From: Eledone cirrhosa
Taxonomy: Eukaryota
NCBI GenBank assembly: GCA_964016885.1
Contig: OZ024740.1
Location: 193,068,001 to 193,132,000 of the forward strand
Direction: 5' to 3'
DNA: 64,000 nucleotides
The position numbers and the translations under genes are program-made. Below the pieces are notes generated by a model. That model was not told where the DNA came from. It did not search any database and saw only the letters and a list, made by a program, of their open reading frames with translations. The first letter of the stretch is position 1, and the number at the start of each line of letters is the position of its first letter. Shown here in pieces: positions 22 through 63,763 of the stretch.

Positions 22-1395
22 ATAAATAACAGATTAAAGTTTAAGCAAAGAATCGCTGATTTCACCCTTAACGGGATCTTCTGAAACTAACAAAGTCAAT
101 CTGTGAACGTAGAAGTGAATATTTCAAAAAACGTTGCAACCGGAGGAAGACAGGAAGACGATACTTTGGTTCGTGGAAACGTTCCCTGGCAAAGATCGGG
201 AAAACACGAATATAATACGTCATTATTTGGAGCTGTGAAAAACAATTACACACAAAGACAAAACCACGTTTATGGTATAAAAGATGTCGTAGACTAATAT
301 TCTATTGTGTGGTTCATAGAGACGTTCTCTGGCAATGAACGGAAACAACGAAGATAATACGTCATATGTGGTGCGGGGAGAATAATTGCACGCAAAGACA
401 AAACCACGTAAATCGTATAACTGAAGTCGTAGACTAAAATTGTAACTAGGAAACCGAATGATTTTAGGCTTCAGAGTTAAGAATAAAATAAATAAAATAC
501 AGAGGTAATAGAAATTAAATAAATACATACACGCATCCAAATGCGTACACACACAATCACACGCGAAAACACTCGCCACAGGTACACAAACACACGCACG
601 TACACACAAAAAAATGCCCGCACGCACATACAGAACCCACGTAACTTTGTTAGTTTCAGAAGATCCCGTTAAGGGTGAAAGCAGCGATTCTTTGCTTAAA
701 CTTTAATCTGTTATTTTAATAATATTTGCTCTACGGTTATTATATATTTGATATATATATTTATCCTTATCGAGCCTTCTTTGGATTCTAGTCGTCAAAT
801 TTATTAGTATTATATATATATATATATATATATATATATATATATATATATATATATATATATATATATACGTGTGTGTGTATAATTTCGTACGTGTGCG
901 GGTACTGGTATCGCGCGGGTTTATGTATGTGTGCGCGTCTTTATGTGTACCTGCTTGTATATATATGCATGGCGGGTGTTTCGCGTATGCATGTGTATGC
1001 GTGTATGTATATATTTAATTATTGTTGATTTCAATAACCTCTGTCATTTTCCTTCTACTAAATTATTTACATTATTCTTAACTCTGAAGCCGAGAACCAT
1101 TCGGTTTCCTAGATAGAATATTAGTCTACGACTTTATTTATACCATAAGCGTGGTTTTGTTTCTGCGTGTAATTGTTCTCCCGTCCCACATAATGACGTA
1201 TTATCTACGCTTTTTTCCGTTCATTGCCATTCAGAACCAAAGTATTGTCTTCCTCTTTTCCCTCGGTCACAGCGTTTTTCGAAACATTTACTTCTGCGTT
1301 CACAGTTTGATTTGATTTTTTTAGTTTCAGAAGATCCCGTTAAGGGTGAAAGCAGCAATTCTTTGCTTAAACTTTAATCTGTTATTTTAATAAAT
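22..1395. mobile_element. PLE pseudo-LTR remnants (family A) in inverted arrangement within (TA)n
   Basis: 22-640 is the reverse complement of ~870-1395; short arm 645-720; another mini-palindromic copy at 22910-23017; all flanked by (TA)n and carry an HHR-like motif. Confidence 0.7.
652..702 (+). ncRNA. Hammerhead ribozyme variant (CAGAAGA core)
   Basis: agttt-CAGAAGA-tccc gttaa gggt-GAAA-gca..tgc-TT-aaact; copies at 1323-1373(+), 38-88(-), 22952-22999(+). Confidence 0.6.
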
Positions 1396-1410
1396 AAATA
1401 TATATATATA

Positions 1411-2462
1411 AAGAAAAAAAGATGAAATCGAAAATGCAACTGGAGTCTTATTTTTTTTAAAATTATATATATTTGGGGGGTTCCATTACCGGTTTCGCAG
1501 TCCTTCTGCTTTTCAAAAGTAGAGTTGAGATGAAGGCTCTGTGGTTTTTCTCACATATGGTTGGTCTTTGAATGTTACTTGTTTTATATGGAAAAAAGTG
1601 GCTCGAAACGCCAGGTTTTTGCAGAAGTAATTTGATTGGTTGGTCAATAAGTATAATACATTTCGCGCCAGTTCGCGTTACAAAGTCATGATTTCATTTA
1701 TAACCAATCAAATTACATTTATTTTAAATAAGCCTTCGTGAGTCACTTTTTTAAAGTTAAAAGAAATTCAAACAATCTTACGCGTAAGCTGATATTATTC
1801 ACGTGACTACAACAACCAACCAAACTTCACACTTATATGAAAAAACAACCTGCTATATTCACTGAACCAGAACAATTCTCCCATCCTCTTTCTCTTGACC
1901 ATTATCTTTTGTTTGTCATAAAATTCTCTAAAAGGCTACAAAATAAATTCACAAATACAGGCACGTAATTTAATGAACTTGTTCACGTGACAGCATAATT
2001 TCATTTATAACCAATCAAATTACATTTATAAAAAAAAAAAAGCCTTCGTGAGCCCCCTTTTTTAAGTAAAAAGAAATTCAAACATCATATAGGAAAAAAA
2101 CAATCTGAGCCCCTCGCCTTGTTTGAAGAATTTTGTAACACGAACTGGCGCGAAATGTATTATACTTATTGACCAACCAATCAAATTACTTCTCTAAAAA
2201 CCTGGCGTTTCGAGCCACTTCTTTCCATATAAAACAAGTAACATTCAAAGACCAACCAGATGTGATAAAAACCACAGACCCTCCATCTCAACTCTACTTT
2301 TGAAAAGCAGAAGAACTGCGAGACCGGTAAAGGAACCAAATAAATATATATATACTATTTTTAAATGAGACTCCAGTTGCATTTTCGATTTCATCTTTTT
2401 TTTTCTTTATACTTTCACTCGTGTAGGACACCTCGGTTATTTTTCATTTTGTAAAAAAACTC
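1411..2462. mobile_element. Non-autonomous PLE pseudo-LTR inverted pair (family B)
   Basis: 1411-1684 inverted vs 2132-2411; (TA)n flanks; further copy 6018-6226; related to termini of the 15-19 kb element. Confidence 0.7.
1483..1520 (-). ncRNA. Minimal hammerhead ribozyme, U3-A8 core variant
   Basis: minus strand ctt-TTGAAAA-gcag aagga ctgc-GAAA-ccgg-TA; copies 2297-2332(+), 6155-6192(-). Confidence 0.65.
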
Positions 2463-2745
2463 ATATATATATATATATATATATATATATATATATATAT
2501 ATATATATATATATATATATATATATATATATATATGTATATAAATAAATTTATTTCGGATATATAAACAGCTCCTTATCTGTAGAGCTAAATCGCTTGA
2601 AACGACTTGGCTGCTATTTATAGCTGTCGACCACGCTATTCACGCCAATGGGAGGACCATGTTGTTAGTAGTTTTAGAATTGCAGCACGTGCGAAGGGTC
2701 ACTCGCAGGTTTGCATTTGATGCGTAAACACAGACAGTTATTTCT

Positions 2746-2836
2746 TCCTCCTTGCTGATGATCTAAGATTTAACTACTGTGACTTTACGGATTTTTAGTG
2801 AAATATATTTCTTTAATGAAATATATACAAGGAGGA
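2746..2836 (+). ncRNA. Type I hammerhead ribozyme
   Basis: tcctccttg-CTGATGA-stem II-GAAA-tatatttc/gaaatata-TA-caaggagga; 9-bp stem I and 9-bp stem III. Confidence 0.85.
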
Positions 2837-2977
2837 TTAATCATTTTTTAAAAGGTAATATTTGAAGATCTAGTTAAACTTTAATTATTTACCCACCAAG
2901 CTGTGTGTGATTACACACTTTGCAAATTATCCCCTGTGATTGTTTCATGTGTTTATTTTAAATTTATATATATATAT

Positions 2978-60971: not shown

Positions 60972-62272
60972 TACAGCTATTGGGAGATAGAGACTTGATA
61001 GTTTTATGACCCTAACTGAGGACGATAACAGTCGCCGTGTTTTGACAGCTTGATCTTCATATGACGGACTAAACTCTGCGTGAGTGAACACCGTTACTTT
61101 TCTCCCTCATATCAAGGATTTGAAGACAATTCATTTTCACCTGACGAGTTCACAGATAATCTATCATGGCTACACGATCGATCTATCTCTTATTAAAACA
61201 TGTGTCGTGATTAAAATGATTGGAAATTTATACCATGCCTTCGGATCTTTATTTTGATATATATATATATAATATATATATATATTTATATATATAAATA
61301 TAAGTATGTAAGTTACATATATACAGACGTAAAATAGTATGTATATACATACATACATGTACACATATATATATATGTACGTATGGGTTTACCGAACATT
61401 TATTATAATGCTCGGTTTGTTTGTAAACAAACAGCCCTAATTATTAACCGTACAGTGTTCGGCAACCTTCCTTGCTTCGTCAGTGTTGATCTAGTTCATC
61501 GTTCCTTTGTCAGTGTTGAACAAAATGATGAACTAGTGTCTAGCTTATTAGCTGTCATCCGCACTGTATACCTTCCTGTCAGTCAATTGAACGTTTGAAA
61601 GTATATACTTTCCTTATGCATCGTTCCTTTGTCAGTGTTGAACAAAATGGCAACAATGGTTGCCGAATACTGTACAGCTAATAATTCGATCTGTTTGTTT
61701 ACAAACGAACCGAGCATTATAATACATGTTCGGTAAACTCATACGTACATATATATATATGTGTGCATGCATGTATCTATATACATACTACAGTACGTAT
61801 GTATACATATATGTATGTACGTATACATATTATATTCAAGTATCAGCCGTACTAAGAGTGAGAAATGAAATTTCATTTTTTCCATTTATCGTTTTCGGTA
61901 CGCCGGGCCGACTAACTCACTCAATATGCAAATTAGGCTGCTCAGCCGTTAATATGCACAAGGAAAGTATATACTTTCAAACTTGTACAGCTATTGGGAG
62001 ATAGAGACTTGATAGTTTTATGACCCTAACTGAGGGCGATAACAGTCGCCGTGTTTTGACTGCTTGATCTTCATATGAAGGATTAAACTCTGCGTGAATG
62101 AACACCGTTACTTCTCTCCCTCATCTCAAGGATTTGAAGACAATTCATTTTCACCTGACGAGTTCAGTGATAATCGATCATGACTACACGATCGATCTAT
62201 CTCTTATTGAAAACTGTGTCGTGATTAAAATGATTGGAAATGTATACCATGCCTTCTGATCTTTATTTTGAT
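60972..62272 (+). repeat. ~285-bp direct repeats flanking inverted family-Q remnants; each with degraded HHR
   Basis: 60972-61257 = 61986-62272; tcac-CTGACGA..TC-gtga at 61137-61210 and 62151-62224. Confidence 0.75.
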
Positions 62273-62848
62273 TCAAATACTCCGATTTACATCATCTAGC
62301 TGTTCCCATACATGGAATTGGAGATATACAAAAGCGTGGAGAACTTAATATTGCTAACAACAAATTTAATGGACCATTTGATACAACCAATAATACAGCT
62401 TTCTATATAATAACTATATATATATATATATATAAGAGAGTATTGAAGTTTGCTTGAAGCATTGTGGAATAATGAGATATATTTTATTTTGGTCGTTTTG
62501 TAAGCCTCAACAATGCAGATGGGTAATTCTCCGGGTAACAAGATCTGGTGGTGAAGAGAGAGATGTAAGTGAATGTAGAATGAGATGTATAGTGTGTAGA
62601 AGAACGTAGGAAAGAGCGTAAAAAATAAAAATAATAACACGAGATAGAGCTACCTTTAGAGAGATTTAATTGTCCCTTTATATTTAGGATTCACATCCAT
62701 CAAATGAGTTTTTTCCAGGGGAGGAGGGGGGGTATCTATGGGAAAGGTGCGAAACGTTTCCTCCGCTCTTTGTTGTTTTGATATTCTTATATATATATAT
62801 ATATATATATATATATATATATATATATATATATATATATATATATAT

Positions 62849-63262
62849 AGTGACGAAACATAAGTCAATTGCATGAACTCATAATCCTTTATTTACTGCT
62901 ATATATATTTAGATGATAGCCATTGAATGGCTATGACCTCATCAGACAGTTAGTCAGTTCTTAGATATGGCCAGCTCTCTGTGAATAGTGTTGATGGTAT
63001 CAGAGCCTTGGGACATATCTGATACCATCAACACTATACACACAGAGCTGGTATATTTAAGAACTGACTAACTGCCTGATGAGGTCATATCCATTCAATG
63101 GCTATCATCGAAATAAATATAGCAGTAAATAAAGGATTAAGAGTTCATGCAATTGACTTATGTTCCGTCACTATTATAACTCCGGAACTTATATATTCGT
63201 TGAGTGCTCCACATCCGCATACTGAAGCACTGGATTTTACCGACACTTACTTTCTTGCTTAT
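62849..63262. mobile_element. PLE pseudo-LTR palindrome (family M) with two HHR copies
   Basis: 62849-63015 inverted vs 63018-63172; HHRs 62895-62950(-, GAAA mutated) and 63071-63126(+); same family as 28930-29092. Confidence 0.8.
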
Positions 63263-63681
63263 ATATACATATATATATTAACATCTTTGAATATATCAGG
63301 AACTTCCACATATATATATATATATATATATATATATATATATATATATATATATATATATATATATATATATATATATATATATATATGTATATATAGA
63401 TAAATGTATATATATATATGTATATATATATATATGTATATATATATATATATATATATATATATATATATATATATATATATATATATATATATATATA
63501 TATGTATATATATATATATATGTATATATATATATGTATATATCTATATATATGTATATGTATGTATATATATATATATATATATATATATATATATATA
63601 TATATATATATATATATATATCAAAGACGTAAAATCAGCACATTTTAAAAATTAAAAATTAACTTACTTACTAAAATGTTC

Positions 63682-63763
63682 ACTCCAACTAATTAGTTTC
63701 TGTAATGGGATAAATATAGTTACACAATATAACTATCGAGAATTCATTACGTCATCAGGGAGT
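63682..63763 (-). ncRNA. Hammerhead ribozyme, diverged family G homolog
   Basis: actcc-CTGATGA-c gtaatg..cattac a-GAAA-ctaattag-TT-ggagt within diverged unit 63620-64000. Confidence 0.8.

Follow-up and report, generated by a model that had tools for sequence, protein, structure and literature searches.

Hammerhead motifs of Penelope-like elements beside (TA)n repeats in a 64-kb stretch of the Eledone cirrhosa genome

Why would 64 kb of AT-rich animal DNA contain dozens of hammerhead ribozyme motifs? We examined positions 193,068,001 to 193,132,000 of contig OZ024740.1, from a 2,996-Mb assembly of Eledone cirrhosa; we will refer to this whole 64-kb stretch as the window. A first-pass annotation had described it as an unusually saturated locus, with about 20 hammerhead families at more than 30 sites, and had proposed that any transcript crossing it could be cut repeatedly. 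We found that the motifs are real, dozens of them, and that the idea of a special locus is not correct. We are quite confident of another explanation: these are hammerheads from near the 3' ends of many families of Penelope-like elements (PLEs), mostly of the Hydra type, that sit in (TA)n repeats throughout the genome. The hammerheads likely served the RNA of the retroelements, and most of the lone copies are likely inert debris. This explanation builds on direct observations: the anatomy of the elements, the placement of motifs in the sense orientation and downstream of open reading frames (ORFs) for reverse transcriptase (RT) and GIY-YIG endonuclease (EN), two end points at (TA)n, pairing of copies, abundance, and a lack of strand bias.

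To find the motifs, we used a structural descriptor for type I hammerheads in which stem III may be palindromic and stem II may be long (score of at least 14). As a control, we used 40 local dinucleotide shuffles of the window. There are 19 motifs with canonical cores in the window, versus a mean of 0.1 (maximum 2) in the shuffles. The first-pass annotation had proposed a comparison of this kind, and the shuffles did not match the window. The motifs have the CUGANGA / GAAA / NUH core and three helices and are open at helix I, as type I hammerheads are. Three variant cores are also above the shuffled level (in the window and 60 other loci): U3-A8 (29 vs. 5.0), U4A (20 vs. 0.7), and U4C (12 vs. 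0.7). Other cores that we tried on the same set were rejected, as they were at about the level of the shuffles: A3-U8 (2 vs. 3.7), G3-C8 (1 vs. 2.3), U4G (3 vs. 1.0), C3U (2 vs. 2.0), and U3-A8 with an altered U4 (9 vs. 8.0). Adding the five motifs in the window with U4A, U4C, or U3-A8 cores gives 24 motifs in 15 clusters, and 23 further decayed or truncated homologs bring this to 47 sites in 21 families. The original counts of sites and families hold only if the decayed copies are included. More broadly, 220 motifs from 81 sources (the window and other loci) sort into 59 clusters, and 55% of the window matches interspersed repeats found in other sampled loci of the genome.

A scan that was blind to stem III gave 94 matches, versus 0 in three shuffles per source, and stem III was a perfect palindrome in 54/94 of these and a near palindrome in 83/94. 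In an alignment of 18 sequences, 7 of 16 consensus pairs had changed on both sides, and all seven lie in stem II. When copies within each of five families were compared, the cores differed at 16 of 933 cells (1.7%), versus 216 of 3807 (5.7%) for the flanks.

The first-pass annotation reported hammerhead folds at 17 positions, of which 15 pass our descriptor (652 with a U4A core and 38250 with a U4C core). The motif at 1483 (- strand) fails the descriptor, yet by homology it is a decayed member of a U3-A8 family. At 12897, the canonical core, stem II, and a CGGCCG palindrome are all present, but the register of stem I is off, and the sampled loci contain no homolog of this motif. The hammerheads of the window, apart from those within PLE remnants or a tandem (see below), are:

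652..702 (+): hammerhead with a U4A core, predicted cut after 697; belongs to the 3' end of a family of Hydra-type PLEs
1323-1373 (+), 38-88 (-, decayed), and 22905-23024 (truncated head-to-head pair): other copies of the 652 family
1461..1529 (-): decayed U3-A8 hammerhead, by homology; core-variant family
2287-2353 (+) and 6133-6202 (-): other copies of the 1461 U3-A8 family
15103-15147 (-) and 19235-19279 (+): distant members of the 1461 family
2746..2836 (+): canonical core, long stem III, predicted cut after 2827; best monomer candidate
3226..3355 (-): U3-A8 hammerhead, long stems II and III
5250..5319 (+): canonical core with internal 17-nt duplications; inverted partial copy at 5195-5239
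5794..5873 (+): canonical core, palindromic stem III; short end 58 nt before (TA)n
6919..6988 (+): U4C core, borderline score
12897..13030 (+): decayed hammerhead that fails the descriptor; core, stem II, and palindrome kept, stem I out of register
19488..19553 (-): canonical core, TATATA palindrome; 49 nt before (TA)n
24012..25127 (+): two tandem copies of a pseudo-long terminal repeat (pLTR), period 699; decayed cores at 24120 and 24824
28992..29047 (+): canonical core; short end 50 nt before (TA)n
31768..31970 (both strands): head-to-head pair of 31867-31902 (-, long end) and decayed 31890-31960 (+, short end); predicted single hairpin
33304..33417 (-): canonical core, long stem II, CTCGAG palindrome
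40618..40660 (-): canonical core, CTAG palindrome, weak stem I
44341..44412 (+): canonical core, TATATA palindrome
58030..58075 (-): canonical core; short end 50 nt before (TA)n
62850..63260 (both strands): head-to-head pair without an ORF, flanked by (TA)n tracts; 62870-62960 (-) is decayed and has the short end, 63071-63126 (+) has the long end; predicted single hairpin
63682..63763 (-): canonical core; 66 nt before (TA)n; same family as 5794

Nearly all of the motifs had been described as lying beside (TA)n. It is true that (TA)4 lies within 300 nt of 23 of the 24 motifs, yet the same holds for 63% of random positions in the window. The real signal is a 3' polarity, not plain closeness: (TA)4 is found within 60 nt on the 3' side of the cut site for 55 of 129 motifs, versus 6 of 129 on the 5' side, with a random expectation of 8%. 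The preference of the Hydra clade for inserting into (TA)n is seen here as well. Every family has two fixed end points, of which a given copy uses one: 20–60 nt after the cut site (the short end) or ~65–120 nt further (the long end). The PLE extends beyond the cut site, and the inserted 3' end is therefore not set by cleavage.

Copies of the same family are often arranged head-to-head. Among 280 motifs, the same-family pairs within 6 kb include 44 that are head-to-head, 1 that is tail-to-tail, and 24 that are in tandem. The partners are from 3 to ~5,900 nt apart. After excluding nine head-to-head pairs with missing or long distances, 26 of the 35 evaluable pairs had one short end and one long end. 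Some of the nine pairs with the same type of end look like cases of TA runs within the tail. Three contig runs of one sample over 880-2455 gave repeats only, and no empty target site.

Other inverted arrangements were seen as well. A long inverted pair of a U4C-core family at 29112-31531 has mirrored (AGAAAA)n/(TTTTCT)n tracts and contains decayed hammerheads at 29127-29206 (-) and 31435-31516 (+). At 20178-20363 and 27743-27943, there are near-perfect hairpins centered on a short TA run, with two PLE-type ends tail-to-tail; these attract spurious microRNA matches. In another locus (L030:885-4606), a large inverted duplication mirrors three different hammerhead families.

The window contains six remnants of PLE ORFs, one Neptune/Nematis-like and five Hydra-like:

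15010..19400 (+): broken Neptune/Nematis-like PLE, with an inverted pLTR at 15010-15375 and RT and GIY-YIG pieces at 16129-18149
19006-19372 (+): 3' pLTR of this PLE, with a decayed U3-A8 hammerhead
20616-21397 (+): Hydra-like ORF remnant, preceded by truncated inverted pLTR pieces of a U3-A8 family at 20046-20446 (element 20046..21397)
27127-27645 (+): Hydra-like EN remnant, followed by an inverted terminal pair at 27743-27943 that lacks an intact hammerhead core (element 26801..27943)
34314..37969 (-): Hydra-like insertion between two (TA)n tracts, with a hammerhead at 34397-34447 (-, long end of 89 nt), an EN remnant at 37437-37799 (-), and an inverted copy at 37903-37953 (+, short end of 21 nt)
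38020..40274 (-): Hydra-like remnant, with ORF pieces at 39150-40274 and a U4C-core hammerhead downstream at 38250-38355
44720..47900 (-): Hydra-like insertion, with a hammerhead at 44776-44849 (-, short end of 52 nt), a broken RT-EN ORF at 45994-47477 (-), and an inverted copy at 47687-47760 (+, long end of 148 nt)

In the first of these, 16653-18149 matches GIY-YIG and RVT_1 (below the Pfam cut-off, E = 1e-5). Its EN has a Cx4CxxC linker (zinc-finger-like) and, for the CCHH signature, a CxxC before the YIG and later histidines, and on these motifs we would classify the element as Neptune/Nematis-like, with no finer clade. In contrast, the ENs at 27127, 39150, and 45988 have a CxCx5C linker and a CxxC or CxH, and no CCHH. 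A protein search with the EN piece at 39150 gave no match. Full-length relatives of the Hydra-like elements, at loci L092 and L196, have the Hydra motifs DKT and RWR or RWC (in place of RWK). The PLE copies within the window are broken, while locus L089 has an open frame of 750 amino acids. Locus L092 shows the full layout known from the literature: an inverted copy, a 5' pLTR with a hammerhead, the ORF, a 3' pLTR with a hammerhead, and (TA)n.

For two of the families, we checked where the hammerhead lies relative to the ORF. In 15 of 20 loci that were chosen by RT similarity (our own count), the motif of the 44776/47687 family is on the strand of the ORF and downstream of it. The 652 family is downstream of a Hydra-type ORF (with RW, DKT, YRDD, and the linker) in 5 of 8 loci. 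Most copies of the motifs are ORF-less ends. For the RT piece at 46818-47459, a first look across the genome gave 41,582 candidates. Judging from sequence, then, the motifs appear to be the 3'-end (pLTR) hammerheads of PLEs, mostly Hydra-type, in the sense orientation relative to the RT-EN ORF. The earlier proposal that many parallel TA-targeting PLE lineages left these motifs is supported by the diversity of families, the 3' polarity relative to (TA)n, and the PLE anatomy. Two side observations concern these elements. At L090:2573-5377 (-), a single open frame of 935 amino acids joins a Hydra-type RT, by way of an (ATT)n tract, to a second RT of another kind, the non-LTR type; one retroelement seems to have landed in frame within another. 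Also, a 2.2-kb mixed TA/CA repeat (34992-37226) lies between the ORF at 37437 and its hammerhead.

Is the window exceptional? With one rule applied throughout, we count 23 motifs in the 64 kb of the window (0.36 per kb), 50 in the 200 kb of its flanks, and 73 in the 400 kb made up of 40 10-kb samples spread evenly over the genome (0.18 per kb, 95% interval 0.12–0.26; 3 in shuffles). Single spread samples reach 7–9 motifs. The difference between the window and the spread samples has a bootstrap P of ~0.04, with local clustering ignored. We also counted four non-overlapping exact patterns across the genome (3.0 Gb) and found 113,257 + 13,559 + 21,230 + 16,390 = 164,436 matches; the reversed patterns, in the same order, gave 288, 2,932, 0, and 0. 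(The 21,230 are matches to the pattern of the 34397/37903 family.) Per Mb, these patterns number 55 for the whole genome, 52.5 for the spread samples, and 156 for the window. So, the genome holds at least 160,000 hammerhead motifs. As descriptor matches are 1.9–3.6 times as frequent as pattern matches, the genome-wide total should be ~0.3–0.57 million (0.43 million when pooled). Far from being unusually saturated, the window is an ordinary, somewhat rich sample (2–3 times the average) of an unusually PLE-rich genome, and the feature is genome-wide.

We used 80 10-kb samples from ten dynein heavy-chain genes, whose spans we inferred from the order of Pfam exons, to check if hammerheads are depleted on the sense strand of genes. 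We found 30 sense and 37 antisense motifs (p = 0.46), or 23 and 27 if only canonical cores are considered. Exact patterns are nearly as dense in these spans as in the genome (45 vs. 55 per Mb).

How might head-to-head pairs with unequal ends arise? By analogy with the Poseidon element of the lizard Anolis, the endonuclease could nick (TA)n on both strands, and each nick could serve as the primer for reverse transcription from either of two internal sites that lie 3' of the hammerhead and would correspond to the short and the long end. Early termination would leave mostly ORF-less pairs, so that each insertion would deposit one hammerhead per strand. We infer that cleavage requires either two sense copies that pair via the palindromic stem III or the element's protein. 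Activity would then be limited to full elements and to tandems like the one at 41259-42672 (below).

Some results weigh against this explanation. In unselected DNA, just 20 of 214 motifs have a PLE ORF remnant within 2.5 kb upstream, so that for most of the 59 clusters, anatomy is the link to PLEs. Of 42 ORF remnants in such DNA, 16 are followed by a sense motif and 16 by an antisense motif, so that orientation does not discriminate here. The likeness to Hydra elements comes from sequence motifs rather than from a tree with the named clades, and the resemblance to Hydra-1_Obim was judged by eye. The priming model is borrowed from a different PLE clade. In the dynein spans, the class with a long stem III leans antisense (9 vs. 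16, p = 0.23), and descriptor density is half of the genome mean (0.084 vs. 0.18 per kb). The strand test is itself weak, both because the spans are inferred from Pfam order and because head-to-head pairs equalize the strands.

Hammerhead-bearing, TA-targeting Hydra elements have already been published; what stands out here is the scale, the U4A family, and the 522-nt tandem. Our elements share with the Hydra PLEs of Craig et al. 2021 (PMC8557442), which include Hydra-1_Obim from Octopus bimaculoides, a C-terminal GIY-YIG without CCHH, the CxCx5C linker, DKT, and RW; a near-3' canonical hammerhead with a palindromic stem III; (TA)n targets; an inverted 5'-truncated copy; and a tail at a single end. 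The units here are larger, at ~3.3 kb (L196) or 4.7 kb from pLTR to pLTR (L092), versus generally under 3 kb (a tendency), and the tail is ~65–120 nt instead of 30–40. Also, we see tens of thousands of copies, dozens of families, and U4A or U4C fixed across entire families.

The motifs also resemble the minimal PLE hammerheads of Cervera and de la Pena 2014 (PMC4209133). Both are type I, with palindromic 15.2-16.2 plus loop 3, an extra unpaired nucleotide before stem II, and U3-A8 covariation in the core. Both occur as many heterogeneous families, mostly as dispersed singles, with opposite-strand pairs 100–700 bp apart. Stem II is often very long here (up to ~115 nt), and the available text of that paper gives no family-level U4A or U4C variants. 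It reports ~2,000 minimal motifs in Schistosoma, 4,000 in the coelacanth, and 9,000 in Xenopus, versus at least 160,000 here, with unlike descriptors. Other published counts, which also rest on descriptors different from ours, are over 6,000 for Acropora and 126,247 for the 28-Gb axolotl genome (PMC7229834); the latter is the largest per-genome figure that we found, and both our lower bound and our estimate exceed it. The giant squid has 235 Rfam hammerhead matches (PMC6962438). The Anolis Poseidon element PAc (Frangieh et al. 2024, PMC11167929) shares two 3' end points that define a tail, and an AT-rich target, but it belongs to another clade, and its tail lies inside the start of the ORF and is 30–40 nt long. 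Our short and long ends match both the PLE tail (PMC8557442) and the two-site priming and two-strand nicking of PAc in vitro (PMC11167929). The rule of one short and one long end per head-to-head pair does not appear in the available text on PAc, and these pairs offer a large in vivo sample to compare with the in vitro priming model.

The U4A (652) family deserves particular attention. The 34-nt core region of this family has 16,390 exact copies in the genome, versus 74 with the canonical U4, and 74 is about the level expected from single mutations. This family expanded recently, as an autonomous element with an altered core, and either A4 is tolerated or cleavage is unnecessary. The role of hammerheads in PLEs has been called unclear (PMC8557442), and PAc can do without ribozyme cleavage in vitro (PMC11167929). 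With its 16,390 identical U4A cores, this young and autonomous family makes the role directly testable, and the genome is a useful test bed even though the system is known. Our literature search, with subscription papers mostly outside it, found no paper on the U4A variant and no octopus or cephalopod hammerhead report at such scale.

A bolder interpretation, which we consider possible but on balance doubtful, is that no genome on record is denser in hammerheads than this one (several hundred thousand motifs in 59 or more families) and that its inventory is partly live, with tandems giving rise to self-cleaved and circular RNAs and with entire autonomous families using the U4A and U4C cores. 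If so, then these families would represent new active hammerhead cores, perhaps protein-assisted, or else proof that PLEs can spread without cleavage, and the pairs of short and long ends would preserve, in the genome, the trace of a dimeric reverse transcriptase that primes on both strands. However, the small Schistosoma genome has tens of thousands of canonical hammerhead motifs, and a total across genomes that reaches six figures was reportedly given by Lunse et al. in 2017. Because of these counts, a record density is not established.

Could most of the ORF-less motifs instead be retrozymes, that is, non-autonomous elements that propagate themselves via circular RNA and PLE proteins, rather than truncated ends of PLEs? 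A candidate for this in the window is:

41259..42672 (+): retrozyme-like tandem of ORF-less 522-nt units, with sense hammerheads at 41375, 41897, and 42419; ends at (TA)n; same family as 5794

This tandem has the structure of a retrozyme: three type I motifs at a fixed period. Between two copies, the palindromes have predicted pairing probabilities of 0.92–1.0, and stem I is predicted to form across copies. In the predicted fold of two copies the core is partly mispaired, and with three copies the first core is open; overall, the tandem is predicted to fold as a double hammerhead. Similar tandems were seen elsewhere, at L061-L062 (466-nt units), L094:8898-9870 (310 nt), and L098:333-1658 (~525 nt), and in L062 and L098 they lie on both arms of a head-to-head pair. 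Animal non-LTR retrozymes have been described (PMC7229834; bioRxiv 10.64898/2026.07.22.740005), and as in those elements, each unit of our tandem is ORF-less and low in GC and has one type I hammerhead. Our unit is longer (522 nt versus a typical 150–450), ends at (TA)n, and is a minority arrangement. The short fixed units, the 24 tandem same-family pairs, and the ~90% of motifs that have no nearby ORF fit this idea. On the other hand, head-to-head pairs outnumber tandems, the spacing between partners is variable, as expected for 5' truncation, and both of the families that we tested have ORF-bearing parents. Retrozymes are thus unlikely to account for most of the ORF-less motifs, and this reading probably applies to a minority of families.

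The first-pass annotation had proposed a special cluster of ribozymes that could shred any transcript made across the window, whichever its strand, and we consider this very unlikely. Its density is above the genome mean, stable monomer stems are predicted for 2746 (stem III pairing probability of 0.98), for the 37903 family, and for the 652 family, and a dimer helix is predicted in the tandem. But the flanks and some of the spread samples are also rich in motifs, the families are common to the whole genome, and sense copies are tolerated in the dynein spans, which show no strand bias. We found no host exon among 79 unique frames in the window (there was one weak DUF3339 match, below the cut-off). 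The stem III of most motifs is of the dimer type, and hammerheads of the palindromic type are reported to be inactive as monomers and slow as dimers (PMC4209133). With ViennaRNA, the active fold of the monomer is predicted to lie 2.2–34.4 kcal/mol above the ensemble for all 24 motifs; because ViennaRNA omits the tertiary energy of the core, costs of 2–5 kcal do not exclude activity. In the predicted folds, each close head-to-head pair forms one long hairpin with its own antisense (-244 kcal/mol for 62850-63260 and -115 kcal/mol for 31768-31970). Intronic hammerhead cleavage may be tolerated. Overall, repeated cutting of crossing transcripts is unlikely as a rule, and the best candidates for live ribozymes would be 2746 and the 522-nt tandem.

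Finally, chance matches in AT-rich repetitive DNA can be dismissed: Rfam reports no hammerhead, a strict descriptor with a looped stem III finds none, and closeness to (TA)n is frequent by chance here, but the shuffles, the palindromes that were not selected for, the covariation, the conserved cores, and the reversed-pattern controls together refute this reading. A check of the window with Rfam, which had been suggested along with the original claims, recovered no hammerhead, either at the gathering score or among the 150 of 267 weak matches that were listed. The Rfam matches in the window are microRNA models on TA/CA repeats and inverted pairs, and standard annotation likely misses hammerheads of this kind. 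A first descriptor of ours, which required a looped stem III and a paired first base of stem II, gave 0 strict and 3 relaxed matches; it was wrong for PLE hammerheads and was rejected.

Several other features of the window are worth recording. An inverted pair of a tRNA-derived repeat, similar to a short interspersed nuclear element, lies between (TA)n tracts at 6285-6833 (the repeat is also at 19675-19800). It has the same head-to-head layout as the PLE ends, without a canonical hammerhead. Rfam's tRNA model matches this pair at 6618-6689 (27.5 bits, below the cut-off), and ARAGORN found no tRNA gene in the window. The 7 kb at 7466-14407 have no match in the other sampled loci and contain a single decayed hammerhead; by eye, there seem to be many diffuse copies of a short degenerate motif at 8400-10900. 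Upstream of the 58030 motif and inside the 3' region of a PLE, 58210-58897 is an (AAAAATA)n repeat with ~85 copies. A broken Helitron at 49141-53650 (-) includes pieces of Rep and of the PIF1 helicase, its N-terminus carries 69-nt STPR repeats, and a second short piece is at 54116-54337.

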